From Eledone cirrhosa (lineage: Eukaryota), in contig OZ024741.1 of NCBI GenBank assembly GCA_964016885.1, positions 66,960,001-67,024,000 of the forward strand: 64,000 nucleotides of DNA, in the 5' to 3' direction. Positions 4,721 through 63,885 of the stretch are shown one piece after another. The first letter of the stretch is position 1, and every line of letters starts with the position of its first letter. Below the pieces are notes generated by a model, which did no database searches, was not told the origin of the DNA, and saw nothing but the letters and a program-made list of their open reading frames with translations. The translations under genes were made by a program, and so were the position numbers.

Positions 4721-4747
4721 CTATCTATCTATCCATCGATTATTATT

Positions 4748-5003
4748 TGGCAGTATCGGTAGAGGTTTCGGACGCCATGCTTTGCTGCAAAGATTACGGC
4801 CCTTTTTGGTCTGAGTTCAAATCCCGCCGAGGTTAACTTTGCCTTTTATCCTTACGGGGTCGATAAAATAAGGTACGAGTAATACATTGGGGTAATTGCT
4901 GTCGTGGTGTCAAAAGTAGAAACAATTATTACAAGTGTAATAAAGTACCAGTAATACACTGAAATAATTGCTGGCCTTGTGCCTAAACTAGAAACAATTA
5001 TTA
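4748..5003 (+). mobile_element. tRNA-derived SINE (family A) with duplicated 3' tail
   Basis: A box TGGCAGTATCGG, B box GAGTTCAAATCC, core tttgccttt(c)atccttacggggtcgataaaataa resembling the conserved Deu/Nin-type SINE domain, tail tagaaacaattatta; more than 10 copies in the window. Confidence 0.85.
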
Positions 5004-12249: not shown

Positions 12250-12307
12250 ATACTATGATCATTTCAATGACCGGGTTCCGTATGAATCCGGTGATATCAT
12301 CAGGTAT
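12250..12307 (-). ncRNA. Minimal type I hammerhead ribozyme; a truncated fold-back copy of the same family lies at 12472-12572
   Basis: Minus strand: atac CTGATGA t-atcaccgg...ccggtcat-t GAAA t-gatc-a TA gtat. Confidence 0.8.
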
Positions 12308-16841: not shown

Positions 16842-17376
16842 AATAAATGTAATCTGAGTTTTTTCGAATATTAATAATAACATTCGATTCGTTTGCAATT
16901 ATGCAAAGAAGCCTCATTTTTAAAGCCATGTCAGTAGAATGTACCCTTCATTCTTGCTCTTGTGTTGGCATGTAAAAAGAACTGCAAACGCTAATGTTTC
17001 TCGGTATCACCCTTCATCAGTACAGCGCACTGGTCACCTGATTTGCATATCAGTCAGATGGCTGATCAGTCAGATCTGCATATTAGCAGATCCACTGATC
17101 AGCCAGATTTGCATATCAGCAGACTGGACAGTCCGTTTCCTGTATACGAGCGATAAATGGCCGGTTTTGACACATTCAAATAAAAAACAAAATTTTATAC
17201 GATGAAGGGTGATACCCAGAAACATTAGCGTCTGCAGTTCTGTTTACATGCCAACACAAAAGCAAGAATGAAGGGTTCATTCTACTGACATGGCTTTAAA
17301 AATGAGGCTTGTTTGCATAATTGCAAACGAATCGAATGTTATTATTAATATTCGAAAAACTCAGATTACATTTATT
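16842..17376. mobile_element. Fold-back element with ~177-bp arms (16842-17018 / 17201-17376) containing an HHR
   Basis: Arms are near-perfect reverse complements. Minus 16981-17026: gctgta CTGATGA agggtgataccga GAAAC attagc GTT tgcagt. The plus arm begins at GATGA and has GTC. Confidence 0.85.
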
Positions 17377-17574
17377 GTATTCAGCCATGTAGAGCGAAGA
17401 AAATTGTTTTTTATATAAATATATATATAACTAAATATATATATATATACGTTTATATATATATCATATTCACTGTCTCCGCCTACGTCAGATTGGGCAC
17501 TAACATGATGTAGTTCCTCCCAATGTTTCATATTTTGCATGATCTTATTTAATTCATATATATTTATACAAGAC

Positions 17575-18338: not shown

Positions 18339-18478
18339 CAGGAGATGCCTGTGTCTGTTTCTATTGCTGCTGTAGGGCTATCATATGTTTGGTTTAAGAG
18401 ATTTATGTATCTCTTGTTAATAACTGTCTTATCAAACAGTTTCTATTCTACTTACGGGTGCCTTCCTGCAACTGCCTA
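18339..18478. repeat. 140-bp repeat with an inverted partner at 23321-23460
   Basis: Near-identical reverse complements; ORFs 18330..18776(+) and 23209..23454(-) share the peptide [19 protein letters not shown]. Confidence 0.9.
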
Positions 18479-18607: not shown

Positions 18608-18865
18608 CAATATAATACAAGGACTATTTGTTATGCCTTCATTACGTTTATTGATTGGTGACTCACGTTTCGCTATTGATCAGCTCAAGGTTCGATCTGT
18701 ATCGATCTGGCCCGACTCTGGAATCAAAATCCTGTCGGACCTCTGGTGTTATAATATATATATATATAAGTATTGAAATTTCCGTTGGAAACAGAAAAGG
18801 TCATAGAAATGAAGAGTGCTCTATGTAAGAATCAGAGCAAAATTTAATGTATAAAATCAATACAA

Positions 18866-18941
18866 TTACCTCATTACCAGAGGTTTCCCGAATGAGGCGA
18901 ATACGAAATAAACGACTTCATTCGTTCGTCAGACGAGGCAA
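18866..18941 (-). ncRNA. Type I hammerhead in the 3' pLTR of the Hydra-like PLE
   Basis: ttgcctcgt CTGACGA a-cgaatga...tcattcg-g GAA ACC-tct-GGT A atgaggtaa; 9-bp stem I with G-U pairs; same sense as the ORF. Confidence 0.8.
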
Positions 18942-20141
18942 TATAAAACATGGGCAAATACTTAGAAAAACACATCAAGAAAATCAAAAAAAATATATAG
19001 ATAAATGAAATAGAAATTGAAATATATAGAAATCTATCAAGAAAAATAGTTAGGTGTGTGTATGTGTATGTATATACGCTCACAGATATGCATATATGTA
19101 TATATGCACATGTAAATGTATAGTTAGAAAGTGTGCGTAATTATAAAAAATTAGGGCAAATGTATCTATATGTCTGTATTATACAGACAGAAATGGTTAC
19201 ATCGTAAATATAAGAATATAAAGTCGCGCGCATAAAAACGCCTGGACACTCGTACACTTAGATGTGGAAAGAAAGGAGGTAAAGATAGTATAATAATTAA
19301 AAGAAAAGTATCTGTCTCGATATATTTATAAAAATATAGTAACGATAAATTAGAAAGAAAAGATAGAAAGAAAAAATTAAAGAAAACAAAAAAAGAGGGG
19401 GTACATACATACACAGACACGCGTGTCTCACAAAAGAAATGTAAAAATAATTATGCTTATATACACACACGCACTTACACTTCCATACGTTCGATACGTA
19501 CATACACACACACACACACACATACTTATACTCGCGCATATAAACCTGTATGCATGCCCACGTATGAAACTGAGTAAATAACAAAAGGGGGAATGAAGGG
19601 GGGGGGAGAAGAAAAAAGGAACCAAAACATAAAACCGAAATGTCAAAAACACGGATATAAAGACACTTACATATACGCATAATATATACATACGCACACG
19701 CACAAACACCTGTACACACACACATACATACACGCACATATATATATATATACATATACATACAGGCACGCGCGCGCACATACGTAGTCACTCATATACA
19801 AATATAAAAAGTATACACACATTAAGGCGTTCAGCCATATTGAAATGTGGATAAATAAGTACAAATATAAAATTGTAAGATAGGCTGCGCAAAAATAAAA
19901 TAAAAATAAAAATGAAAAATATATCTGGATTGAAAAACACAAACGACAAGTATAATCAGTTAGTGGAGGAAAAAGGGAAGTAAAAGAAGGGGAAGTAAAA
20001 AATAGAAAATAGGGAGTGGATCGGAGAATAAGGGGGGGGGGTGAAGTAAAAATAAATAAAAGTGAAAATAAATGAAATTATTGACAAGGAAAAGAATGAA
20101 AGTAAGTCAGAAAGGGTAATTAAAAAGAGAATAATAAGAGT

Positions 20142-22280
20142 TTATGGAGGATAAGTATCTGAAAGTGTGTTAAGTTTATATGAGCTGGAAAGCAGGTGTG
20201 ATTTCATGTGTGGGCAACTGGTAAAAATTTCCGTCTTTGTGTTCAGGCAGGTCTTCGGTGATTTAAGATTTTGCAATATCCAAAATTTTTCATTTATGCA
20301 GAGCGTGCATTTTCTTGATCCTCTAGCATATTTTTTAGATTGGTTCAAAATTGACCAATCTAGTTTATATTGGATGCCTTGGTCTTTCAAATCCCAGATT
20401 CTGCTAGCCAGAGCTGTTGTAAATCTTTTTTCTGGATGTCGAAAGGATGCGACATGTGAGTAATAACGCGTTTTGAATCTGTCTTGCGTCATACCCACAT
20501 ATCGTTCACTGGTGACTGGATGGTTGTTGTTGGTGGTTGTCACATTAGCCGCATATACAATGGCTTTGGTGTTGCATTTACCTTGTAATGGGCATTCACT
20601 TTTGATTCTACAGGAGCAAGTTTGATTTTCTCTAGGTGTTGTTTTGTTGAGGATATAGGACTTAATGGGGGACCGCAGGAATAGCTAATTTTAACACAGT
20701 TTCTGTTAAAGATCTTATAGTATCTATGTGTTCTAGGGAAATGTTTATCTAGGAGTTCTAGGAATTTTTTGCCTACATTAGTTTTAACTGCTAGAGAGTA
20801 GGGGGGGTGTGAACCAGATTATTTTTCTTTTCCTATTTTTATGTTTAATAGAGTTAGTGTAGTTAGGTATGTATTTAATCGGTTCGCTAAAGCCTCTATT
20901 TTGGAGGGCTTTATTATAGTAGGGGGGTGCCTTATTGAAAATAGCTTCTGATGAAGAGAGGGTAGAGATCCTATGGCTAATATTAGGGATAAGGTTTTTA
21001 AAAACTATAGGTGGATGGCAAGATCCTTTATTTATATATTTTAAGTTTTCATTAGGTTTATGGTATGGTTTATAAGAAGCAGTAGGCAAATCTAAGTTTA
21101 TATCTAGGAAATCTACGTTGGAAAGGTTAGTATCAATAGTAATTTTAAGATTAAAACTAGCAAAGGTTTTTATTAAGTCTTTCCTTAATCTATCTAAGTT
21201 ATGGCCTATGGTGGTATGGGAAAGTATTAGACCATCATCGCGATAAAGCCCAAAAACATGGTTAGGAAATTTTTCTTTAAGTGTATGTAAGAGGAATAGG
21301 CCGACCAGATCACAAACCTCGGCACTGTCATAAGAGCCCATTGAGACATCGAATGGGTTCTCTGGGTTAGATATTTTTACCCAAGTGTCATTATCATTAA
21401 AAAGTAGAGTGTTCCTAGCATGCAAGATTACATCCTCTTCAATATCGGAGATATTAGTAAACCCTCTAGCGAAATTTAAAGCTTTCACTAAAAGGGTCTG
21501 AGTGATAGATGGGTAGAAATCAACGATATCGAATTGGGTGAATCTAGAACTGATTTTGTTTTTAATATTATTAAACCAATGTACTACGGAAGAGCTATTT
21601 ATCCATTGGAGTAATTTAGACTTACTTCTAATGTGTGTATTTAATTTATTTAAAATTTTTTTACTGGCAAGACCAATATCAGTCTTAGCAGGGTTGATTA
21701 ATCTACAACTAGGGCGATTAATAAAGTCGGGTTTATGATCTTTAAGGGTGATGTAGGCAGAACGTTTAGCAAGTTTTTCTATCCTATTATCTATTTTTAA
21801 AGAAACAGCTAATTCTTTAGCTTCCTTATTTATATTATGGTACGTATTTATATTAGCTATTTGGTATTTAGAGGTGATATTATCTATTAATAGTTGGTCG
21901 TGTAAATTATTATTAACTTCATATAGGTTTTTAGTTTTATCTGAGAAGATGAACTTATTATTAGAAGATTTGAAAGTAGAAATATCATTAGATAATTTGG
22001 ATTGAAAGGGGTTAGAGTACTTACGAAAATTGATGTTGTTGATAAGGTTAACTAGGTCTAATTCAAAGGCGGTCATATCTTTTACTCTTTGCGGGTATTT
22101 GTAAGTTTTGATGTCAAAATATTCCGTAGAATCCGTGTTAAATTGACCACCGAGAATCAAAGCTTTCCATCTCATTCTTTTAACAACCTTCTCTACTTTG
22201 TCTATCAGTATTTTCGTGTAGAGAGTGTTAGAAGGTGTTGGGATATTCTTTACGGAGTAGTCCAAAGGGTATTTGTCCAT
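20142..22280 (-). pseudogene. PLE polyprotein: reverse transcriptase plus C-terminal GIY-YIG endonuclease, frameshifted near 20800 and 20660
   Basis: 498-aa ORF with TLKDHK, RLINPAK, FDIVDFYPSI, FDVSMGSYDSAEVCDLVG, GLYRDDGL, DFLDINLDL, HPP, IIWFTPP; then CSC...CPL.GKC..AIVY and YVGMTQDRFKTRYYSH...C.LC..EK. Confidence 0.92.
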
Positions 22281-22494
22281 ATTCGGTATTGGTTTAAAAT
22301 CCTATGACTGAAGAGTGCTCGACTTAAAGAGGGCTGGAAGGTGCCAATCTCATAACGATGTAGAATATGCTACGATCATTCCATTGGGAGCTTTATAAGT
22401 ATTGAAATTTCCGTTGGAAACAGAAAAGGTCATAGAAATGAAGAGTGCTCTATGTAAATATCAGAGCAAAATTTAATGTATAAAATCAATACAA

Positions 22495-22570
22495 TTACCT
22501 CATTACCAGAGGTTTCCCGAATGAGGCGAATACGAAATAAACGACTTCATTCGTTCGTCAGACGAGGCAA
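22495..22570 (-). ncRNA. Type I hammerhead in the 5' pLTR (copy of 18866-18941)
   Basis: Same motif sequence in the second pLTR. Confidence 0.8.
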
Positions 22571-22793
22571 TATAAAACATGGGCAAATACTTAGAAAAAC
22601 ACATCAAGAAAATCAAAAAAAATATATAGATAAATGAAATAGAAATTGAAATATATAAAAATCTATCAAGAAAAATAGTTAGGTGTGTGTATGTGTATGT
22701 ATATACGCTCACAGATATGCATATATGTATATATGCACATGTAAATGTATAGTTAGAAATTGTGCGTAATTATAAAAAATTAGGGCAAATGTA

Positions 22794-22998: not shown

Positions 22999-23070
<72 letters not shown>

Positions 23071-23076
<6 letters not shown>

Positions 23077-23276
23077 TATATACAGATATGTGCATATACG
23101 TATGTATATATATTTAAGTAAGTGCCGTATATAGCACGGCACTTACTTAAATGTAAGTATGTATGTCTGTATACATACATACATACTTACATTTAAGTAA
23201 GTGCCGTACTATATACGGCACTTACTTAAATATATATACACACATATACATACGTATATGCACATATCTGTATATA

Positions 23277-23282
<6 letters not shown>
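23071..23282. repeat. Nested palindrome (a hairpin of hairpins) within (TA)n
   Basis: tttaagtaagtgccgt..acggcacttacttaaa hairpin occurs twice, and the whole 212 bp is approximately self-complementary. Confidence 0.85.
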
Positions 23283-23324
<42 letters not shown>

Positions 23325-23724
23325 CAGTTGCAGGAAGGCACTCGTAAGTACAATAGAAACTGTTTGATAAGACAGTTATTAACAAGAGATACATAAATCT
23401 CTTAAACCAAACATATGATAGCCCTACAGCAGCAATAGAAACAGACACAGGCATCTCCTGTGTGCATATATGTGTGCATGTATGTATATATATACATACT
23501 ACTGTACGTCTGTATACATATATGTACGTACGTATACATACTTATATTTAAGTAACTGCCGTACTAAGAGTGGGAAATGAAATTTCGTTTCATTTTTTCC
23601 GTTTATCGTTTTCGGTACCCCGGCCGATTAACCCACTCGATATGCAAATTGGGCTACTCAGCCGTTAATATGCATAAGGAAAGTATATACTTTCGGAGGT
23701 TCAACTATCTGGCAGGAAGGTATA

Positions 23725-23765
23725 CGTTGCTGACGATAGCTAACAAGCTTGAAACTAGTACAGCG
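23725..23765 (+). ncRNA. Minimal type I hammerhead in a 227-nt terminally redundant unit (23570-23832)
   Basis: cgttg CTGACGA t-agct-aaca-agct-t GAAA ctag TA cagcg; 36-bp direct repeat gtgggaaatgaaatttcgtttcattttttccgttta at 23570 and 23797. Confidence 0.85.
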
Positions 23766-23827
23766 TTCCTTTGTCAGTGTTGAACAAACGAGCAACGTGG
23801 GAAATGAAATTTCGTTTCATTTTTTCC

Positions 23828-23858
<31 letters not shown>

Positions 23859-24520: not shown

Positions 24521-26715
<2,195 letters not shown>

Positions 26716-27639: not shown

Positions 27640-28067
27640 CACACACACACATATATATATATATGTATATATATATACACACACACACACACACATATAT
27701 ATATGTGTATATATATATACACACACACACAAACACACACACACACACATATATGTATATACATCTATATATATATACGAAAAAAGTCAGGACCCAGACG
27801 GCTGAGCTCCGGCCGTTTCAACAGCTAGATCCGGAGCTCAGCCGTTGTGGTCCTGACTCTTTTTATATTACCTACTCTACTATCCCGAGTATTGAGTACT
27901 CTGATGCGTTATGGTTTACCGGGTATCTTACCACACCCTGTTTATTATATATATATATATATAGTAAAAAATTGAACGGGAACAAAACAGAGAGGCAGTA
28001 CGAACAAAGGTTTATTAGTTTCATTCTCTTGAGAGTGGGGTGGTGATATATGTATATATATATATAT

Positions 28068-31000
28068 AAACAGATAAAACTAAATCAAGATACTTTAGAG
28101 AATATCAATAGATATCCCGACAAAATTGACGGTATAAATATGGCCGATATCTCATTAACAGATGAATTCAACAACAACAACACAAATATATACGGCAACA
28201 CTACGGTCGACTCTGATGAATTATCTGTATTACAACTGCCGCCTAAGTATGCCACATACAACAAGGTAAATATGATTAGATGCTTGTCAGAAATAGAAAA
28301 ATCATTTACAAAATTACGTGGGAGCCTCAAAAACAAAAACAAAAACAAAAACAAAAGTAACAACATACGCACGCACACACGCATATACAACACACATCCA
28401 AACAACAACAGACACACAGACACAAACAACAATAACAACAACACACACATCAACAATAATAACATACTCAGAAACAACAACAACAGACACGCAGACACAA
28501 ACAACAATAACAACACACACAACAATAATAACATACACGGAGACAACAACAACAACACACATCAACAACAGCTCACATCAACAACAACAACAACAACAAC
28601 AACATCACACACACATTTAATGCCTCTCACCACCACCACAATCTTAACAAACACACAAACCAGAAAACAGATAATGACAGTAGCACAGAAATAAGGGAAG
28701 GTAATAGGATTGAAAGGAGAAGGGAGACTATGGACAGAGAAAATAACCAAGACGAACACACAGACACACAAAATAGAGTAGATAATAACAATGAGCCAGG
28801 GGAAAGAGACAGGAGTAATAATGAGAGACATAGAAACAACCATGAGGCTGTTGGTGGAAATAGAAATAGAAACAACACAACTAACAATAACAATAGCACT
28901 AGTACACATAAAGCAGCAGCCTGGAACTCTACTTTTTATAATCCCTCTGATAAGTCGTTCGACTTGCGTCGAGTCCACGCCACGACTTTAGCTTTTAACA
29001 AACGCACGCAATTGCCATCGCAGGTCGATGAACAAACAGAAGCACAATTTAGTATAGCTAGATCTAAACTTAGAAATATAGAACAGTATAGCAAGAAGCA
29101 TAATAGAATGGAAACCCAGCAACTGGGAGAAAAATCTGCAAATGGCTTGCGTAAGCTCATGCAGCGCTCGCGTAATGGAGAGATAGCATGCTTTCCAACA
29201 GACAAGTCTGGCAGAATGTCGGTTGACAGTCTGCCAAACTACATCCAGGCAATGCAACCCCACATCACTAACACAAGAGAAGTAACACCACAAGACCATG
29301 AGGATAGAGAAAAAGCCCTCAATACCCATATGGTGATGTGGACAAATATAATGCAGCCCAACAAAAGGACTGCCAATAACTTCCAGGCCTGGAACAATGA
29401 CGTGCCAGCGTTGTATGGGCTTCGAAAGGACCATAAAACGAGCAGTGACCCTGTCACGGGACCACCAACACGGCCAGTCTGTGGAGCTAACATTGCTAGT
29501 AACTACAGACTGTCCTACTTCCTCTCCCTGATCATACGCCCCATCATTGAAATGTCCCCAGATGTATGTGACAGCACGGAGGACCTCTTCAGCAGAATCG
29601 GCGAGAGTAACCGATCTAGGGACCTAACAAACTGCATAATAGGTAGTATGGATGTTGTGTCCCTGTATTCATCTATTGACGCGGATTTTGCTGTGGAGAA
29701 ATGCGTAGAAATGATCAGTGAGAGCAATGTTGAATTCCGTGGGATTGATACCAGTGAGCTGGGACTCCTACTTAAACTTACCTATAGTAATAATTTTCTA
29801 GACACATATGTCCTTAGCAACCTTTGCCCTACAAGACCAGCAAGAAGCAAGCAGACCACCTACCATTACTTCAATGGCCAAGAAAACCCACACAGATAGA
29901 TGGAACGGGTGGACCAGAGCCATACGGACACCCGAAAACCACGATGAACTAAAGAAAATGATTGCACATGCGGTGGGGGCCAGCATTCAATTAACCCTTA
30001 AGGAACATATGTTCAAATTTAATGGAAAAACATATGCCCAAGAGGAGGGAGCAGCCATTGGTGTTAGCATTGCAGGCGACATAGCTAACCTATTCATGGT
30101 ATGGTGGGACAGTAGACTTAAACTTAAACTTAAAGAACAATTAGAAGACGCCTTAACCCTGATAATGTACTCCCGCTACGTTGATGATATAAACATCGTA
30201 GTTAAAACACCCCCACTAGAGAATAGTCAGGAATTAGAGAAAAACACAATGGAAAGCATCCAGCAAATAGCTAACTCCATCCACCAGAGTATTAGAGTTA
30301 CTATAGACTACCCAAGCAAACACTCCAACCATCGATTACCTGTACTAGACACAGAATTCTGGGTAGATACCATTAATAACAAAAAACAAATCCTCCATTC
30401 CCATTATGCCAAACCCATGACTTCCAAATATCTGATCCACCGAAACTCAGCTGTTTCGGACCATACCAAAATCAACATACTGATTGCGGATTTGGTACGG
30501 GTGATGAGAAACGTGTCCCACATGTGCAACCCCAAAGAACTAGAGAGACACATACAACACTTCATCCACCGTATGCAGTTCTCTGGTTACAATCAGAGAG
30601 ATAAAATCAGAGTGTATAGAGGAGCCAGAACCAAATGGGAAAAATGGTAAATAATGACACAAGTAGGACCTGCCCCTTGTATAGGAGCAAATTTTGGAAT
30701 ATAATAGAAAGAACTAGGAATAAGGCTAATAGAATAAACTCATGGTATGATAGCAATTAATACCAGAATGTAATGTTCATCGATAGAGCCCCTAGAGGTG
30801 AATTAGCTTACAAATTTAGAAGGGCCCTAGATAAATATAAACTCAATATTAAGATAGTAGAAAGACCAGGTACCTCCATAAAAACACTTATTAGCAAGAC
30901 ATACCCTTTTCAAAGACCTCCCTGTATAGATAAGAAATGTATAATCTGTAAATTAAGCCCCATATTAACTGTAAAACTAGAAATGTAGTATATAGCATAA

Positions 31001-31838: not shown

Positions 31839-31980
31839 TGAGCAGACCCTTAAGCGTTATTTGAATATACACTATATACATGCGCACACGCACTTACACC
31901 CCCACCATATATATACATATATATATGTATATATATGTATATATATATATATGTATATTCAAATAAGGCTTAAGGGTTTG

Positions 31981-34510
<2,530 letters not shown>

Positions 34511-35857: not shown

Positions 35858-37012
35858 ATACTCGGGGAGGGTCATATTGTTGGAATAATATTGCCCCAGA
35901 AATAATTGTTTCTATTTTAGGCACAAGGCCAGCAATTACCCAGTATATTACTGGTACTTTATTTTATCGACCCTGTAAGGATGAAAGGCAAAGTTAACCT
36001 CGGCGGGATTTGAAGTCAGATCATAAAGGGACGTAACTCTATGCTTCAAAGCATGGTGGCCGACTCTCTACCGATACTGCCAATCCATTGCCCCAGAAAT
36101 AATAACAGAACACACTCACTGATTGGTTGGTTTTCACTTCTGTATCTTTTATATCTCCATAATTAATTCATTTGGCCATCAATGTTTATCACTAACTGAC
36201 CAACGGTCAAAAATACAGATATAAACACATATATATAGTCTAACAAAGTTCTTTCGCTGCACATCTGCAACATCATCAGTGGTACTATTCTCATGTTTCG
36301 CCTGCTGTATTGTATGTATTGTAATTTCCACGCCATTTTTATTTTATCTATTTATTTATTTATTTTATTTTTGTCTTCGTCTCTGCGCATGCGTTTGCGT
36401 GTGTGTATAGTGTTTGATTTGTGTGTTCGCGTTTGGGGGACTGTGTTTTGGTTATTGAATTCTATCTTAGTTTATTAGTGTGTGCTTATATGTGTTTGTT
36501 GTTATTGTGCTTGTGTATATATTTATTTATTTATATTTGTCTTAAGTCAGTATTGTTTGTTTGGGTGTCGTTGTTATTCCATTCATTTTTTCTGTTTAGT
36601 TTTGGCTTTCTAAGCTCTATTTCACTTGCTTCTCTGATTTGCCTACCTGTTGAGTCATTTCTATGTTTAGATATTATTTTAATTTCTATGTTGTCTATGT
36701 TACCGTCATGTTGTTGTCTGGCGTGTTCGAATAGTACTAAACCGTTTTTTTTGTCCTTTTAATTCCCCCCAGTGTTGGTCTATTATCTTTCCTATGCTTC
36801 GAGCTGTCTCACCTATGTTTGTCGTTGTCATGTTTCTGCAAGTACCCTCTCTACATCTTATGCTATAGACTACATTTCTAGTTTTACAGTTTATCTGGGA
36901 GTTAACTTTACATATAACACATTTCTTATTAGTACAGTGGGTTTTCTTAAAAGGGTATGTTTTGCCGATCAGAGATTTTATGGTAGTTCCTGGCTTTTCT
37001 ACCACTTAAAGA
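35851..37012 (-). mobile_element. 5'-truncated Neptune-like PLE (GIY-YIG region plus pLTR with HHR at 36243-36283), interrupted by a SINE
   Basis: VEKPGTTIKSLI..YPF...C..KKC.IC...NCKTRNVVYSIRC...IGETARSI; HHR CTGATGA t gttgca-gatg-tgcagc GAAA gaac TT. Confidence 0.85.
35901..36086 (-). mobile_element. Full-length family A SINE with target-site duplication
   Basis: attgccccagaaataat at 35890-35906 and 36087-36103; an empty-site paralog lies near 22930. Confidence 0.88.
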
Positions 37013-42810: not shown

Positions 42811-42815
<5 letters not shown>

Positions 42816-44275
42816 GAAGTTAATATGCCCGTGGGTACTAAGTACCCCCGGAAATACATAGGTTGTCTATGATTTAAGGTTGTTCTATGGTATCAATTTG
42901 ACATACCAGAACTATAATATTAATATAAGCAGAAGAAGCAAAATTCAACCAATTTTTTTAAATAAATTAAAAAATATAATTTAAATATTTACCTATTCAT
43001 TTGGCCCTTACCGATCGGTTTCGCCTTGTAAAACACTAGAGATCCAATGGATTTCTAATCGAAAATCAAGGCTCATCAGAGAAGCATTTTCCTTTCCTAG
43101 GGCTAAAGACCCAGGAACGATAAAATATATTGTTATCTGCCAGCTAGCACATATCCAAAAGGCCGAAAAATGACCTGTACGTGAACTACCCGAGGTGAAA
43201 GCGGGAAAAACATAGACGTGTTGTCTATCTCGTTACTAAAAATAGCAGCTAAATAGAAACAACAGATTTGTTCTCAACATAACGGAGGGTAATAGAAGAA
43301 GTTAATATGCCCGTGGGTACTAAGTACCCCCGGAAATACATAGGTTGTCTATGATTTAAGGTTGTTCTATGGTATCAATTTGACATACCAGAACTATAAT
43401 ATTAATATAAGCAGAACAAGCAAAATTCAACCAATTTTTTTAAATGAATTAAAAAATATAATTTAAATATTTACCTATTCATTTGGCCCTTACCGATCGG
43501 TTTCGCCTTGTAAAACACTAGAGATCCAATGGATTTCTAATGGAAAATCAAATTGGATCTGTGCTAGCTGGCAGATAACAATATATTTTATCGTTCCTGG
43601 GTCTTTAACCCTAGGAAAGGAAAATGCTTCTCTGATGAGCCTTGATTTTCCATTAGAAATCCATTGGATCTCTAGTGTTTTACAAGGCGAAACCGATCGG
43701 TAAGGGCCGAATGAATAGGTAAATATTTAAAGTATATTTTTTAATTTATTTTAAAAAATTGGTTGAATTTTGCTTGTTCTGCTTATATTAATATTATAGT
43801 TCTGGTATGTCAAATTGATACCATAGAACAAACTTAAATCATAGACAACCTTTGTATTTCCGGGGGTACTTAGTACCCACGGGCATATTAACTTCTTCTA
43901 TTACTCTCCGTTATGTTGAGAACAAATCTGTTGTTTCTATTTAGCTGCTATTTTTAGTAACGAGATAGACAACACGTCTATGTTTTTCCCGCTTTCACCT
44001 CGGGTAGTTCACGTACAGGTCATTTTTCGGCCTTTTGGATCTGTGCTAGCTGGCAGATAACAATATATTTTATCGTTCCTGGGTCTTTAGCCCTAGGAAA
44101 GGAAAATGCTTCTCTGATGAGCCTTGATTTTCCATTAGAAATCCATTGGATCTCTAGTGTTTTACAAGGCGAAACCGATCGGTAAGGGCCAAATGAATAG
44201 GTAAATATTTAAATTATATTTTTTAATTTATTTAAAAAAATTGGTTGAATTTTGCTTGTTCTGCTTATATTAATA
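42811..44275. mobile_element. Retrozyme-like element: 482-bp HHR-containing unit, ~1.5 tandem copies on each strand, joined as a fold-back within (TA)n
   Basis: Period 482 (42812/43294; 43632/44114). HHR ttct CTGATGA gccttg...caaggc GAA ACCG-at-CGGT A aggg at 43005-43083(-), 43628-43706(+) and 44110-44188(+); junction ~43551; no ORF. Confidence 0.85.
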
Positions 44276-44649: not shown

Positions 44650-44685
44650 TCTTCTGATGAAGGACTAGCGTCCGAAACGTTAAGA
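44650..44685 (+). ncRNA. 36-nt minimal hammerhead of classic PLE type
   Basis: tctt CTGATGA a ggac-tagc-gtcc GAAACGTT aaga; palindromic AACGTT replaces stem III. Confidence 0.85.
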
Positions 44686-47448: not shown

Positions 47449-47928
47449 CTGTGTATTATATATATATATATATATGTATAGTACACACACCCACAGACAC
47501 ATTCACAAACATATATATATATATATATATATACATACAAATATAATCATAGATGTATATTATGTATAAGTAAACTGATGATTAAATTAAGTATTTCCGT
47601 CTACTTCATCAAAAGCGATTCAAATCATATCGTAGGAACAGAAAGAAAAGTTTGTACTCGTTTAGATGATGTAAGTTTAATACGACATTTAAAATTAATC
47701 GCAGTTAATCATTGACAGTATAAAGAACTCAATGAAAGCGATCGACACTGAATCTAACATGATCTGACACATATAGTCTTTCTTTTCGTTTTATTTAAAG
47801 TAAATAGAATATATGTAGTTAAGATAATGAAGTATCAAATCACATTGCGCCAATAATTGGCCTGCTACCCGTTATTTCTTAAAATGGTATCACATCTATG
47901 AAGCATTGGATATACAGTTTTACTGATA

Positions 47929-48113
47929 TTGGCAGTATTGGTAGAAGATCGGACACCATGCTTTGCATCATAGAGTTACGGCCCTTTACGGTTTGAGTTC
48001 AAATCCCGCCGAGGTTAACTTTGACTATCATCCTTACAGGGTCAACAAAATAAAGTACTAGTAATACACTGGGGTAATTGCTGGCCTTGTGCAAAAAGTA
48101 GAAACAATTATTA
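47929..48113 (+). mobile_element. Family A SINE
   Basis: A box, B box, core and tail all present. Confidence 0.85.
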
Positions 48114-48727
48114 CTTAGATGTTGTCTTAGTTTTGGATATATTTTAGACACAAGCCTAGCATTATAGGGCAAAGGAAAATCGGTTATATCGACACCAGTT
48201 CTGGATCTAGTCTCTTCCCATTCTCATTGTTGAAAATCGGGTACTAGAGACAATTGGGCCAATATTTATTTACATGATGCCGTGTGTCCAAGATTTTTAT
48301 CAAGAAAAATATGCCGTCCGTACGTCCCAAATACTCGTCCGACCATTACTCAAAAGCTGGCTACTGAGCAGCAGTTCAACAGCCTTCATCACAAGGACAA
48401 AGTCCTCGATCACTTGGAAAGCCGACACCAAGGTAACTAAGGAGTCCCAACTACCAATGTTTTGATCCTTCTCCTAGACAGACTACTAAGCATGGCTAAC
48501 AAGCTATGTCTACCTGTTTACTTTTACACATTATTGGATAGCCGTTGATGTTAATGAGTTCCTTCAACATTTGATAGTTATTTTTTTTTCATCCCACAGA
48601 GAGTCCAAAAAGCATCCTTCTCACCAAGCAAGCTTGGCGGGATTGCCTTTAATCACCGATGACCCGACCGTGTGACAGGTTGTGGTGGTTACATGCTTCC
48701 AATAGCGCTCGATAGTGACCTTACAAT

Positions 48728-49273
48728 GTACCAGTAATTAAATGTTACCATTTTTTCTTGACTTCGGAAGTATGAATGGCAAATTTGACCCGAGAGAGAT
48801 TTGAACTCAGAATCTAAAGAGCCAGAAGAAATGTCACAATAGTATTTTATGAAACGCTCAACAAATTCTTCCAATCCACCATCCTCGTTTATATTCATAA
48901 TAATTGTTTCTACTTTTGGCACAAGGCCAGCAATTACCCTGTGCATTACTGGTACTTTATTCTATCGACTCCATAAGGATGAAAGTTAACCTCGGCGGGA
49001 TTTGAACTCAGAACGTAAAGGGCCATAACTATGCTGTAAAGCATGGTGTCTGATGATCTACCGATGCTGCCAATTCACCAATTCATTGTGGATTGGCAGT
49101 ATCGGTAGAGGGTCGGACGCCATGCTTTCCAGCATAGTTACGTCCCTTTACGATCTGAGTTCAAATCCCGCCGAGGTTGACTTTGCCTTTCATCCTTACG
49201 GGGTCGATAAAATAAAGTACCAGTAATGCACTGGGTAATTGCTGGCCTTGTGCCTAAAGTAGAACAAATTATT
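48728..49273. mobile_element. Cluster of three family A SINEs: 48728-48882(-, old), 48899-49080(-) and 49087-49273(+)
   Basis: The two young copies are head-to-head; attcat occurs at 48893, 49081 and 49274. Confidence 0.88.
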
Positions 49274-52200
49274 ATTCATGATAATACAGTATAACTATAT
49301 ATTTGAATTTCGTTTTCTTTTACATCTATGAAGAGCCTATTCTTTAAGTTTTAAAATAAGCGTATTGTGCAATACAAAACAACTCCGGCGGTATTCTCCG
49401 AGTCATAGGCGACGAATTGGCAGAGTTGTTAAAACGTAGAATGTTTTTCGGTAATCATCCAGGCTCTCTGTGCTCTATAAGTTCAATCCTGCAGATGTCA
49501 ACTTTGCCTTTCATCCATTTGTGGTCGATAAAAAAGTGCCACTCCAGTAGTGGGGTCGGTTGTTCATCTATATCACTTTCGCACTTCCTCTCTCGCACAC
49601 TCACTCCCTCTCCTTCTCTGGGAGAAATCGGCTGCGTTAAGACCATCAGAAAGGATGGGCTTTGCCAGTTTTAAAGTGCCCAATACACTCCGTATGCCCC
49701 GGCGGTGCCCCTACGACTCCATCAGGAGTTACGGGTAGATACAAATATACATTTCTCGAGTCATCGTCATCTCGGAAGATCTAAGCCAAATTCAAATGGC
49801 TCTTAGTACTCTTATGTAAAGAATTCAAAACTATAGTACAGTCTATGATGGTTCTCATCAGATACATGAGACCGTCCCTTTTCTCTGACATCCATCCCTA
49901 ACCATGTCATCACCAAGTTCAACTGCAGGATTCATACATACTTGGGATCCTCATGAAGGATGATGGGGTTAATTATTTTAGATTAACCACCACAAAGAGC
50001 CCCTAATTTGTTGGTGGAGTCTTTCAAAACCGCGCTGTTTTCATCGGTACCGTGGTTGTCTGAAATACGTCAGAGATGTAGTTCAACTGCCGTGGGCGGC
50101 CTTTTTATATTTCAGGCCGCTCATGTCAATGTAATTTTAACTTTATACACACATGGATATGCACAAACAAACACACATTTCTATATATATATATCACATG
50201 TATGAGACTGACTACAAATATATATGTAGATATATGTATATATTTGTGCTTATCCAGCAAGGGCGTATTTACCAGAAGCATTCAATTTATAACTTTCCAG
50301 ATAACGTGATTCAAATATTGTATCTATTGATTCTTTTCTGAAGCACTTAAGATTTGTCTGATATATACGCTCTTCTTACTACCAGCATAGACACAACCAC
50401 TACTATCAACAACTTTACATCCCCACCACCACCATCAACAACAACAACAACAACATCACTTCCATTAGCAATGCTACTAATATAGTATTCAATGGGATTA
50501 TCACAATCAAAATTATCACCAACATAAACATAACTACTTTAACCCTCACCACCAACACTTGCAACATAGCCACAACCAGAAACAAAAAAAGCCAGCAACA
50601 GTGATAAAACCACCAATATAAACAGCAATATCATCATCACAGTTAACCACTGTTACCGCCAGCATGACCACTACTATCAGCATAATCATTACAATAACTA
50701 GCAGCCCACGCAAATCACCCCCCCCCCACACAAAAAAATGTTTGTTGATACAAACAGCAGAAACGTAGTCGTTCATACTGCTAGAAATGGGAACCAAATA
50801 TCCTTCAGATTACATACAAGCCTCTTAAATATAGAAAAGACACACTAGATAATGTCTTTTGCTACTACTGTAAAGAGTGGGGGATCATAGATGGAATGTT
50901 TATAACCAAAGGTCTAAGTCGGACTTGCCTTGGAACTAAAGGACATCATAAGTCTGATGCCTCTATATGGTCGCTTGAGCGTCTAAATTTTGCCGCCAAA
51001 CCTCATCTTACCAACTTAAACACGTAAATAACTGATTGAATGATTTGATAAAAAATACATTATGAAAGCCAAAAACTTGGCTTTATCATGGCTGGAATGG
51101 CTTTTGATCATTAATGCTTCATCTAAGCTAAACGATAAAAATCCCAACCACGACCATTATCACTGCCATTATCGCAAATATCTGCTCAACACACGGAAAT
51201 ACTTCTGACATATCCGTATGTCATCAAAGAAGAAACACCGTGGCTACCAATAATCAGAAAATGCACCCTGAAATACTTATAAATGTTAGTATCTTACGAA
51301 TTCTACAAAATACTTACACAAACACCACAAAATAACAACATAAACAAATAATCTAGATGATGAAATATAAATTGAATGGTCACCGCTGTTAGATTATTAT
51401 ATCTTAGAACTGCCTGTGTAAATATCAGCAACCTATACCATTGCCACTCTTGTGACACATGCCTGCTTAATGTTGGAGAACGCTCTCTGGTATGAAGAAC
51501 CTCAGGGTAAAGCCACCTTATTTTCACAGCAGACAGAATAGAGAGTGTTACTCTGGAGAATAGTAAAGCAGACGCATTGAAATAGTCTTTACAACACGTG
51601 GAGCTCATTCCTTCGTGTAGCCTACATTGTCCCGATGGCAGTGAATAGGGATATGGTTCGGGGGCCAACGTCTGAAGACTCTACCGCTGTAGATTCAACG
51701 ACAAATCTATCGGAAAGCAACTCATACTTCAGCAGCTTGCGATCTTCAGCATATCGAATAATCCAGATTACAAAAATAGCATTGCCAATAGCCACAATGA
51801 TTAAGAAAAACACGACTTATTGCTATTGTTATCTTCCTTACAAACATCAGAATTTCATCCAAAATTCATACAAAACAATTCACATGCACACAAATAAACT
51901 TTATAAACGTGACGAAACCAATCTAAAAATTCTTCAATACCCAAACGGCAATAAAAACTCTTTTATGGGATTAAAGATTTTATCGTTACTCAGGACATTC
52001 ATATAGTAATAATTCAGAAAACATTCTTACCAAAACACAAAAACATTCACCATCTAGAATTATAAACAAATCAGACGATTTTACTGGCTTTCCCCAACGG
52101 ACGTTGGCTTATAACATACACACACGCACACATACACAAACACACACACTCACACACACATACACGCACACACACACATATATATATATGTACATACATA

Positions 52201-55644: not shown

Positions 55645-55836
55645 GGGCGGTGGATTGGCAGTATCGGTAGAGGGTCGGACGCCATGCTTTCCAGCATAGT
55701 TACGTCCCTTTACGATCTGAGTTCAAATCCGGCCGAGGTTGACTTTGCCTTTCATCCTTACGGGGTCGATAAAATAAAGTACCAGTAATGCACTGGGTAA
55801 TTGCTGGCCTTGTGCCTAAAGTAGAAACAATTATTA
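55645..55836 (+). mobile_element. Young full-length family A SINE with TSD
   Basis: Starts gggcggtggattggcagtatcgg; flanked by ttattactaaacacaa on both sides. Confidence 0.9.
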
Positions 55837-55891
55837 CTAAACACAATAAGAAACCATTAAAAAAGAACAAATATAAGAAACCATTATTACT

Positions 55892-60407: not shown

Positions 60408-63400
60408 TCCCACATCAAGACGTAACATATCCGCGTATAGTTCATACTATCCGTTAGGGTATAACGTGGCGCTGTAATACAGGAAAGTTTTGTTCAATTT
60501 ATGTTTACAAGCCAAAATTGCCTCAGATTTTTTGTTTAATATGTGGTCTTTGGCGTAGAGTATTTCCAGGGACTCAGCGGCGCAGAGGTCACATGGTCTT
60601 TTATTTCCGTTATACGATTTAGCCCTAGCTAGGATATCCCAGTGTAACTTATATTGGGTGTGGTTGTCTTTTAGACGTTTTCTGGCAATGAACAAAAAAA
60701 AACGAAGATAATAAGTCATATGTGGAACGTGGAGAACAATAGCACGCAAAGACAAAACCACGTAAATGGTATAGCAGAAGTTGTAGCCTAAATTTCTAAC
60801 TAGGAGACCGAATGAATCTCCGCTACAGAGTTAAGAACAAAGTAAATAAATACAATACAGAAGTAATAGAAATAAATAAATACATACACGCAAACAAATA
60901 CGTACATACACAAGCATACGCAAAACACTTACCATAGGTATACAAAACCACGCACATATAAATATGTGTGTGTGTATGCGTGTATACAAATAAATAAATA
61001 ATTATATAAACGTATATAAATAAATAAATACGTATATAACAAGCACACCCACATACCTACATGTAAATACACGAATGTTCGGAGACGTAAGTCAACCAAA
61101 ACATGAAGTACACATATACACACACCCTACATACGTACGAACCAGCATACTCACACAGACGCAAAACTTCCGTATACACAAAGCCAAACCATATGTACCA
61201 GAATATATAAAATTATACGCCAAAACATAAACAATTAAATATACGTACGAGAAGGTAAACGTACCTTCACAAAACATACGGGTAATATATACTTACCTAT
61301 GCAAATAAGTAATGGTATAAACAAAACATATACTTAGCTCCCACATCAAGACGTAAAATATCCACGTATAGATCGTACTATCCGTTAGGGTATAACGTGG
61401 CGCTGTAATACAGGAAGGTTTTGTTCAATTTATGTTTACAAGCCGAAATTGCCTCAGATTTTTTGTTTAAGATGTGGTCTGTGGCGTAGAGTATTTCCAG
61501 GGCCTCAGCGGCGCAGAGGTCACATGGTCTTTTATTTCTGTTATACGATTTAGCCCTAGCTAGGATCTCCCAGTGTAACTTATATTGGGTGTGGTTGTCT
61601 TTTAGACTCCAGATATAAGCTGAAAGTGTCGTCATATTCCTTCTTAGAGGGTAACGAAAAGAATGGGTATGCATGTAAAGACGCTGCTTGAATCTATTGG
61701 CGGTTAACCCTATGTAGGCCCTACGGGACGTGGGTGTTACAACCTTACATTTGTAGACGATGTTACTAGAGAGGCATTTCTCGGATAGGGGGCAATCAAA
61801 CTGATTCCTACAAATACAGTTAGTACTAACTACAGGGTTGCACGTGTTTTTACGGCTAGGTAGTTTAGCTAAATTTGAAGCTGTGAAGTTATGTGCAAGG
61901 TTAGGAGTCGTAGAGTAAGACATTTTAATAGTATTTCTATTAAAAATTTTACTATATGTATGTGTAGGGGGAAAATGCTTCGTAATAAGGGAAAGAAAGA
62001 TCTTAGCTAATGGTGTGGCCACCTCCATATTATATGCGACGGGATCTATTTCTTCTAGGTCTATTTTCGTACTCAATATATGCTACCTTATCGACAAATC
62101 CACTTCGAGCAAGAGCTTCATTGTAATAAGTGGAATGGTCGTTGAAAATACGCTCGTTGGTGGAAAGACGGGAAAGCCTCAACGAAACATTTCTTACCAG
62201 GTTCTTGGTTATGCTGTATAGAGAGGTTGAAGACTCTAAAGAAGGCTGTGAGTTCTTTTCTGAACCTGTCGCAAGCACGAGGTCCGCACTTAGTCATGGT
62301 CAAAAGACCATCGTCACGGTACAAACCACCGCCCGCGTTGGGGAATTCATCCTTGATAGAGAAAAGAAGGAAAAGGCCGATAAGATCAGTAACCTCCGCA
62401 GAATCACTGGCGCCCATACTCACGTCGAATGGGGTACTATTGGATTTTTTAATCCAAATAGAGTCGTCGAAATTAATCACCGACTTTCGGCCATTGAGGA
62501 TGACATCAACTTCGAAATCCTTAACCACTGTGAGTGTTATAGCGAAATTGATAGCTCAAAGGAGAAGTGGTGAAGTGATGGAGGAGTAGTAATTGTTGAT
62601 GTCGAATTGGATAAAACAGCAATGTTCCTTGTTACATATGCCGTTGAACCAATCAATCACCGCGAAAGAATTGTTCCACAGTGCAAGAGGGTCCAAACTT
62701 CTAATTTCAGGTATAATTCTATCAAGAATCGTTTTACTAAGTCTGCCTAAATCGGACTTCGTAGGGTTAATAAGCCGAATAGAGGGGTTGTTCGGAAAAT
62801 TGGATTTGTGATCCTTCAGGGTAAAGTGGGGAGAAATAGGCCCTGGAAATACTCTACGCCACAGACCACATCTTAAACAAAAAATCTGAGGCAATTTCGG
62901 CTTGTAAACATAAATTGCACAAAACTTTCCTGTATTACAGCCCCACGTTATACCCTAACGGATAGTACGATCTATACGTGGATATTTTACGTCTTGATGT
63001 GGGAGCTAAGTATATGTTTTGTTTATACCATTACTTATTTGCATAGGTAAGTATATATTACCCGTATGTTTTGTGAAGGTACGTTTACCTTCTCGTACGT
63101 ATATTTGATTGTTTATGTTTTGGCGTATAATTTTATATATTCTGGTACATATGGTTTGGCTTTGTGTATACGGAAGTTTTGCGTCTGTGTGAGTATGCTG
63201 GTTCGTACGTATGTAGGGTGTGTGTATATGTGTACTTCATGTTTTGGTTGACTTACGTCTCCGAACATTCGTGTATTTACATGTAGGTATGTGGGTGTGC
63301 TTGTTATATACGTATTTATTTATTTATATACGTTTATATAATTATTTATTTATTTGTATACACGCATACACACACACACATATTTATATGTGCGTGGTTT

Positions 63401-63660
63401 TGTATACCTATGGTAAGTGTTTTGCGTATGCTTGTGTATGTACGTATTTGTTTGCGTGTATGTATTTATTTATTTCTATTACTTCTATATTGTATTTATT
63501 TACTTTGTTCTTAACTCTGTAGCGGAGATTCATTCGGTCTCCTAGTTAGAATTTTAGGCTACGACTTCTGCTATACCATTTACGTGGTTTTGTCTTTGCG
63601 TGCTATTGTTCTCCACGTTCCACATATGACGTATTATCTTCGTTTTTTTTGTTCATTGCC
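60408..63660 (-). mobile_element. Rearranged Hydra-like PLE: RT plus GIY-YIG (62830 to 61378), 3' UTR to ~60680, extra ORF-end copy (60408-60675) and inverted upstream copy (62840-63660)
   Basis: FTLKDHK, RLINPTKS, QFDINNYY, FDVSMGASDSAEVTDLIG, GGLYRDDGL, YIGLTANRFKQR, CDLCAAE; duplicated segments match by direct reading. Confidence 0.9.
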
Positions 63661-63885
63661 AAAACACACACAGGACAAAATGAAAACACACACACGCATA
63701 GAACAAACAACCAACCAACAATAAATAAATAAATAAATAAACAAATAGATAAATGAACACAAACACACACAGACACCCGGATGTGGCGCATGCGCAAACT
63801 GAGCACACAACACACACACAGAAACAAAATGGCGTAGGATAGAAGAAAGGAAAGGCACAGAAACAAAGAAGGAATCCCCAGTCAC
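63661..63885 (+). mobile_element. Fragment of the Neptune-like pLTR family
   Basis: Matches ~31305-31513; ends at cagtcact followed by (TA)n. Confidence 0.8.

Follow-up and report, generated by a model that had tools for sequence, protein, structure and literature searches.

A 227-nt retrozyme-like unit with one hammerhead motif and a 37-bp terminal repeat beside a Hydra-clade Penelope-like element in Eledone cirrhosa

Introduction

According to the available text of PMC7229834, metazoan non-LTR retrozymes are low-GC type I hammerhead repeats of 170-400 nt; as membership limits, a unit of about 150-450 bp and a GC content below 45-50% were used here. Unit lengths given there are 225 and 245 nt in Acropora millepora, a coral, 227 nt for the jellyfish Nemopilema nomurai, 233 nt also for jellyfish, and 350-390 nt for mussel, and axolotl and mussel retrozyme RNAs were closed by RtcB in vitro. 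In the accessible part of their preprint, Li et al. (bioRxiv 10.64898/2026.07.22.740005) derive retrozymes from the pseudo-LTRs (pLTRs) of Penelope-like elements (PLEs), count monomers as common, and call a non-LTR retrozyme 'active' if it has two or more successive units with a complete hammerhead in each.

PLE insertions often carry an extension of 30-40 bp (PMC8557442). In an anole PLE with AT-rich targets, this extension was found to correspond to what lies between two internal sites of RT initiation at a stem-loop (PMC11167929), and the copying of a circle beyond unit length has been put forward as a hypothesis for PLE tandems (PMC4209133). Both the copying of circular RNA by PLEs and the mobilisation of retrozymes by PLEs have been proposed in the literature and are still undemonstrated.

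Here, we analysed a 64,000-nt stretch of the Eledone cirrhosa genome (GenBank assembly GCA_964016885.1, contig OZ024741.1, positions 66,960,001 to 67,024,000 of the forward strand), hereafter the window, in whose coordinates all features are given. It contains a hammerhead-bearing 227-nt unit, for which the original prediction had proposed that a 227-nt circular RNA was copied slightly more than once and that it represents a second, smaller retrozyme family. In a literature search on cephalopod and octopus retrozymes and hammerheads, which covered few subscription papers, no description of this element was found; it yielded the PLE paper PMC8557442, a paper on an LTR element and one on twister ribozymes.

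Results

The locus is a single genomic copy that is 1.16 units long and contains one type I hammerhead motif. It is bracketed by an exact direct repeat of 37 bp on the plus strand, copy 1 at 23570-23606 and copy 2, the start of a second unit, at 23797-23833, with a period of 227 and a leftward extension of zero. The (TA)n run at 23831-23858 already includes the last 3 nt of the repeat, hence its honest length is 34-37 bp, and the 3' end of the element lies at 23830-23833. The starts at 23570 and 23797 had been predicted correctly together with a length of 36 bp, which has to be changed to 37 bp, while the predicted terminal redundancy of the 227-nt element is well supported by an exact repeat far beyond the chance expectation of about 6e-14. 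The 28-nt core of the repeat occurs at just these two sites in the window when up to 3 mismatches are allowed, and no further copy of the 227-nt unit was found within the 64 kb.

The full unit (23570-23796, plus strand) has a GC content of 42% and is non-coding. Its longest ATG-initiated ORF, 68 codons at 23577-23783 (+), spans most of the 227 nt; since ORFs of this length or longer were obtained in 266-431 of 5000 shuffles (5-9%), it is treated as a chance ORF. It is without homologue, and as a probe for other copies it gave 0 candidates. The region 23570-23833 contains no RT/GIY-YIG ORF, and an identity with an autonomous Hydra-clade PLE, which would have an RT with a C-terminal GIY-YIG, was therefore rejected. 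The unit also has no AT-rich UTR or ORF remnant and no tRNA-derived head (ARAGORN). The exact 26-nt ribozyme pattern had 0 matches in GTDB genomes, blastn gave 0 matches in phage sequences, and a bacterial promoter scan, which is not relevant to this DNA, was empty.

The type I hammerhead is located at 23724-23766 (+) and consists of a 6-bp helix I, a 4-bp helix II with a U.U mismatch at its base and a 2-bp helix III with a palindromic hexamer. The core motif CTGACGA is found at 23730-23736, GAAA at 23751-23754 and the palindrome ACTAGT at 23754-23759, and cleavage is predicted after A23760. The single 41-nt hammerhead that had been predicted at 23725-23765 between the repeat copies was recovered with its size and its palindrome, and also stem I is present, although its proposed 5 bp are too short because A23724 and U23766 pair as well. 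Helix I extends past an internal loop (loop 1) over 23712-23776. The same extension is present in the HH9 model, which represents type I ribozymes of the canonical form and of which positions 1-77 could be aligned.

An equally complete hammerhead motif was seen in 1 of 300 order-3 Markov windows and in 0 of 200 shuffles. Searches with Rfam at the gathering level gave 0 matches in the 64-kb window, and a search of 800 nt brought up nothing beyond miRNA matches driven by microsatellites and further hits due to chance. In a 96-nt search the full HH9 model (RF02275) was aligned with E=0.0078 at 19.2 bits against a gathering cut-off of 52; loops 1 and 2, in which metazoan non-LTR retrozymes have conserved nucleotides for tertiary contacts, are of model size and show part of the model letters. 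The helix sizes are those of the 'canonical' metazoan type I form in the available text of PMC4209133, according to which a weak palindromic helix III functions as a dimer. The motif at 23724-23766 is predicted to need a dimer and, with one ribozyme, the locus itself cannot release unit-length RNA.

The 37-mer alone is predicted to fold as a hairpin, and copy 1 resembles a miniature pLTR or 'tail'. This hairpin is extended across the unit junction by a helix between 23786-23796 (5' arm) and 23601-23611 (3' arm, with 23607-23611 beyond the repeat; both plus strand). Nine of its 11 pairs are Watson-Crick, including all 5 in which both partners lie beyond the repeat; the helix contains a symmetric 2x2 loop and keeps exact register with the hairpin. 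The actual left flank reaches 3 of 11 with the same arm. A pairing as good with the junction arm was found at 33 of 105148 window positions. The junction hairpin has a predicted energy of -18.1 kcal/mol versus -9.1 for the hypothetical empty site, and 55 of 5000 random flank pairs did as well as the junction. The end and the start of the unit thus complete the hairpin in register, so that the repeat belongs to the element and the template was head-to-tail; it should be noted, however, that both arms pair with each other in the linear unit too, where they close a multiloop.

As a circle, the unit is predicted to fold at -64.2 kcal/mol with 70% of its bases paired and z-scores of -3.7 and -3.8 (0 of 300 and 0 of 150 shuffles), compared to -2.5 for the linear unit. 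Helices I and II are pre-formed in this fold (pairing probability 0.45-0.94 for helix I and 0.9-1.0 for helix II), and the active fold is 1.4 kcal/mol above the minimum. A ribozyme that is free to fold within a self-paired circle has been described for metazoan retrozyme circles (PMC7229834). However, the antisense circle folds nearly as well (z -3.5) and 2 of 40 random window pieces had z-scores of -3.8 or lower, hence the circular fold is supporting and not decisive.

With its 3' end the element abuts the (TA)n microsatellite at 23831-23858, which is presumably the insertion target and lies outside the 227-nt unit, because copy 1 runs at 23607 into non-TA unit sequence and a different repeat follows on the far side, where 23862-23931 matches 12169-12101. 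The element was thus wrongly thought to end in (TA)n. Its 5' end is without direct (TA)n contact. Three unassigned nucleotides (23567-23569) separate it from the left neighbour, a fragment of another repeat (23323-23566, minus strand), whose part 23323-23460 recurs in inverted orientation at 18339-18476; both copies are (TA)n-terminated on the side away from the element. The block 23323-23830 has (TA)n on both sides, resembling the many tail-out inverted insertions of the window, and it might conceivably result from a single event. Further to the left, 23021-23322 represents a nested palindrome between two (TA)n runs, with 151-bp arms that each contain an inner hairpin, and the motif at its inner end is common to 23540-23566 in the left neighbour.

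The 5' end of the insert, G23570, has repeat position 31 as its pairing partner; the 3' end is situated 3-6 nt further on. The two ends are thereby placed opposite each other on one short helix, an arrangement expected in about 5% of cases by chance (post hoc estimate). The terminal stretch is a hairpin whose 37 bp are within the published tail range of 30-40 bp, and its interpretation as a PLE tail is plausible. Fifteen local inverted repeats were examined, 12 of them bounded by TA runs; one-sided extensions of these 12 ranged from 0 to about 150 nt, and since 39-40 nt were found in just 2 of them, the local repeats do not confirm a fixed tail length. No clear pattern was shared by the terminal hairpins of other elements in the window. 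In 8 of the 12 TA-bounded repeats, for example at 24524/26611, 26812/27138, 37067/37930 and 35013/35224, the longer arm goes on with a TATA- or ATAT-like stretch at precisely the point where the shorter one runs into (TA)n, which suggests that microhomology to the (TA)n target serves in priming.

A Hydra-clade PLE is situated at 18769-22791 (-), 0.8 kb from the 227-nt element, so that a suitable mobiliser clade is present in this genome. It is (TA)n-bounded and has 394-bp pLTRs that are 99% identical, each with a long-stem hammerhead (cores at 22561 and 18932). Its ORF is interrupted once, between 20784 and 20684, and contains the motifs RWK, DKT and CxCx5C, which are given as diagnostics of Hydra-clade PLEs in the consulted part of PMC8557442. 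The clade was assigned from these motifs and by eye against Hydra-1_Obim; among the three proteins of this by-eye comparison the ORF came nearest to Hydra-1_Obim, which is from Octopus bimaculoides, the others being Hydra proteins of coral and sea cucumber. A sequence search gave 2130 relatives of the Hydra ORF. Pfam, applied to 9 proteins, left the Hydra ORFs unrecognised; its two matches were both weak, one to RVT_1 and the other unrelated. Three ORF regions in the window carry Hydra-clade motifs. Further broken PLE-like ORFs are found at 28047-30650 (+), with a DKS motif and the weak RVT_1 match, and at 31974-33100 (+) and 60408-63667 (-), which are Hydra-like, the latter with inverted and direct repeats. 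The original interpretation stands only in part, and it missed this PLE context: among the traits published for PLEs are copying of more than a unit, a terminal extension of 30-40 bp and insertion into (TA)n.

In the part of PMC8557442 that was available, (TA)n is listed as target for 26 of 27 Hydra families. A hand count of its Hydra-clade ribozyme rows gave a U.U at the base of helix II in 14 of 26, ACT..AGT in helix III in 17 of 26 and both features in 13 of 26. The distance from the cut to the 3' end was 29-152 nt in 23 of 24 rows, with two rows that have a 5'-end ribozyme left out, and amounts to 73 nt in the 227-nt element. The U.U base is also found in an axolotl retrozyme (PMC7229834) and hence is not Hydra-specific. 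The unit and the neighbouring Hydra pLTR showed no significant similarity (score 27, null mean 37), and the ribozyme of this pLTR differs in shape from that of the unit.

Upstream of the hammerhead, an octamer module at 23639-23675 (+) comprises ATGCAAAT at 23642 and a related second motif. The octamer is presumably the Oct/POU octamer of snRNA-type promoters, and the module could possibly act as an internal promoter element. An 11-mer with this octamer occurs three times in the window versus 0.05 expected, each time upstream of a hammerhead-like core. The promoter of newt satellite 2 contains an octamer. Newt satellite 2 has been cited as having an snRNA promoter (PMC2220036). It resembles the 227-nt unit in being a small repeat with a hammerhead and possibly with a promoter inside, whereas no proximal element was identified in the unit.

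The module is also present upstream of the degenerate hammerhead-like core (at 17020) of 16843-17200 (-), an element with an inverted 5' partial copy that reaches to about 17414. When a cognate autonomous end was sought in 17 window regions on both strands and in 1046 sliding windows, 16843-17200 was the only credible match; its score of 65 was the best among the sliding windows (mean 30, sd 7; next unrelated 60). In 2000 shuffles none was as good under two of four scoring schemes, and 6 and 47 were as good under the others. The similarity sits upstream of the ribozyme (0 of 1000 shuffles in all four schemes); downstream of it there is no match, shuffles being as good in about 250-460 of 1000 cases, and the 37-mer is not significantly similar to the tail of 16843-17200 (1369 of 2000 shuffles). 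Three weaker matches, antisense or gappy, to the 44654 element, the 482-bp repeat and the 36279 region were discarded as low-complexity. The element at 16843-17414 has two exact octamers, a related third motif and a 39-nt one-sided extension, and judged from its sequence it could possibly be a 379-nt head-to-tail unit related to the 227-nt element. The tail of 16843-17200 matches its own start (22 of 2000 shuffles, low complexity). We regard 16843-17200 as either a distant relative or an analogue of the 227-nt unit.

Several other hammerhead motifs are scattered over the window. The region 42813-44272 contains a 482-bp head-to-tail repeat and an inverted copy, with hammerhead cores at 43632, 44114 and 43079 (minus); the helix II region of this hammerhead measures 50 nt and its helix III is palindromic. 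With its two tandem ribozymes the repeat makes a stronger case for an active retrozyme than does the 227-nt element, and it probably represents the first, larger retrozyme family that was implied when the 227-nt unit was called the second. More hammerhead-like motifs at 44654 (+), 37427 (-), 26904 (-)/27046 (+) and 5834 (-) belong to different repeats that end near a microsatellite, and at 12303 (-), 31512 (+) and 36279 (-) hammerhead cores are present that failed the descriptor. A SINE-like dispersed repeat of about 185 bp occurs in many copies (4747-4931, 35901-36087, 47928-48115, 48897-49275, 55650-55838 and partial copies), in which ARAGORN found no tRNA head.

Discussion

The repeat, the ribozyme anatomy, the lack of a coding gene, the junction pairing, the (TA)n neighbour and the nearby Hydra PLEs are all directly visible at this locus. 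For the view that the locus is a non-autonomous retroelement of the non-LTR retrozyme kind, of which a circular RNA was copied into (TA)n by a PLE, probably of the Hydra clade, we see about an even chance; the same reading without the circle step appears distinctly probable. The steps that we infer concern transcription, cleavage, circularisation, the mobiliser, and the sites where copying started and stopped. Transcription would take place at a tandem source locus elsewhere, and paired hammerheads would cut the transcript after the base equal to 23760 to free monomers, which a host ligase may close into a 227-nt circle. A PLE protein would then nick (TA)n, and reverse transcription might begin internally, at the hairpin's 3' foot in the RNA, go one lap, copy the hairpin again and halt at its 5' foot, leaving a hairpin at both ends. 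With one ribozyme, the resulting copy is probably a dead-end monomer.

The insert is uninterrupted through the predicted cut site, hence the template was a ligated circle or an uncut multimer, or was bridged by a precise jump. An uncleaved tandem transcript leaves the same footprint, so one copy cannot prove a circular template. Head-to-tail copying over 1.16 units can be retained from the original prediction, in view of the in-register junction hairpin and a circle z-score of about -3.8 (0 of 150 shuffles), while the circle itself is kept as a likely reading. Likewise, size, GC content and ribozyme type fit metazoan retrozymes, and the proposed 'family' consists of one copy.

The main rival is the uncut multimer, that is, the same element and PLE machinery with a linear uncleaved tandem template that was 5'-truncated after 1.16 units, including an array shortened by recombination or collapsed in the assembly. 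It deserves this place because unprocessed RNA was the dominant substrate for the anole PLE in vitro, where the hammerhead was not required (PMC11167929), and 8 of 9 Xenopus retrozyme dimers showed no cleavage (bioRxiv 10.64898/2026.07.22.740005, as far as its available part reports). We nevertheless consider it somewhat unlikely, since random truncation would not account for a 5' end that comes to lie across a single helix from the 3' end (about 5%), 16843-17200 also seems to begin within its own tail, for which the low-complexity match gives 22 of 2000 shuffles, and in coral, mussel and axolotl the form that abounds is the circular one (PMC7229834). Still less credible, and in our opinion improbable, is an origin as a one-off internal-deletion derivative or solo pLTR of a long Hydra-clade PLE with a 30-40 bp tail at both ends, in which case there would be no independent small-RNA family. 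Such a derivative would account for the Hydra-type ribozyme shape and its distance to the end, for 37 bp inside the published tail range and for one copy in the window, and a pLTR origin of retrozymes has been proposed (bioRxiv 10.64898/2026.07.22.740005). However, the entire 227 nt form a compact self-paired fold without AT-rich UTR or ORF remnant, the PLE ends of the window do not match the unit, and the octamer module is common to another small hammerhead-like element.

Two further explanations place the origin of the repeat outside the element. In a window so rich in (TA)n-bounded local duplications and inversions, one might suspect that 37 bp at the margin of some unrelated repeat with a hammerhead were duplicated locally at the DNA level, through repair or a template switch, yet the cases in the window are inverted and not direct, and the pairing register is unlikely by chance (33 of 105148), which makes this explanation very improbable. 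The 37 bp could also be the target-site duplication (TSD) around a 190-bp hammerhead element, an objection that the original prediction had raised against itself. The repeat is exact and metazoan retrozymes may have TSDs of more than 4 bp (available text of PMC7229834), but element-internal sequence on both sides finishes the hairpin of the repeat in register, the other copies of either flank are without the 37-mer, the 190-nt circle folds worse (z -2.6 vs -3.8) and PLE targets are (TA)n here. Hence, we assign a TSD a barely appreciable probability.

The explanation by a PLE-copied retrozyme RNA can be extended to a mini-retrozyme with its own octamer promoter that rides on Hydra-clade PLEs, with the insert ends as the two feet of the junction hairpin and one RT lap plus hairpin on circular RNA. 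This full version is rather doubtful. If it were true, the one-lap-plus-hairpin footprint would explain the PLE 'tail', and the 227-nt element would be a natural substrate for the question whether PLEs copy circles. The facing of both insert ends on one junction helix gives a testable clue to this tail. Moreover, with its sharp ends, its Hydra-type ribozyme and an adjacent Hydra PLE, the element offers a small and cheap test case together with a candidate partner clade.

Regarding known systems, plant LTR retrozymes are likewise non-autonomous, carry hammerheads and are explained by a circular RNA model, but they have a type III hammerhead in each long LTR, PBS and PPT, a 4-bp TSD, 600-1000 nt and a high GC content. 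An identity with them was rejected, because the ribozyme here is type I, single and outside the repeat. The tail of the anole Poseidon element PAc (Frangieh et al. 2024, PMC11167929, as far as its available text goes) resembles the present repeat in a terminal stretch of 30-40 nt, a stem-loop downstream of the hammerhead and an AT-rich target; it is a one-sided, optional extension of an autonomous element, whereas here the stretch is found at both ends of a non-coding unit. Hydra-clade PLEs, as described in the consulted part of Craig et al. 2021 (PMC8557442), share with the unit the U.U helix II, ACT..AGT in helix III, a cut-to-end distance into whose range the 73 nt fall, (TA)n and partial-tandem ends. 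They differ in having an RT/GIY-YIG ORF, 2-3 kb instead of 227 nt and a 1-3 nt centre in helix III, and the unit has no match to the Hydra pLTR of the window.

The closest likeness is to the metazoan non-LTR retrozymes (PMC7229834; bioRxiv 10.64898/2026.07.22.740005), which have canonical type I helices with a short palindromic helix III, units comparable to the 227 bp, 42% GC, non-coding sequence and predicted self-paired circle with free ribozyme found here, autonomous PLEs in the same genome and commonly monomeric copies; the present locus differs by its 1.16 units with one ribozyme, and the likeness refers to the published descriptions. With one ribozyme at the locus it is a monomer, and not an active retrozyme, by the definition of Li et al. 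Elements of this kind are already described, and 227 nt is an ordinary size, with families of the same size in corals and jellyfish. Collectively, the locus likely functions like a metazoan non-LTR retrozyme, but is not to be classed as an active retrozyme or an autonomous PLE.
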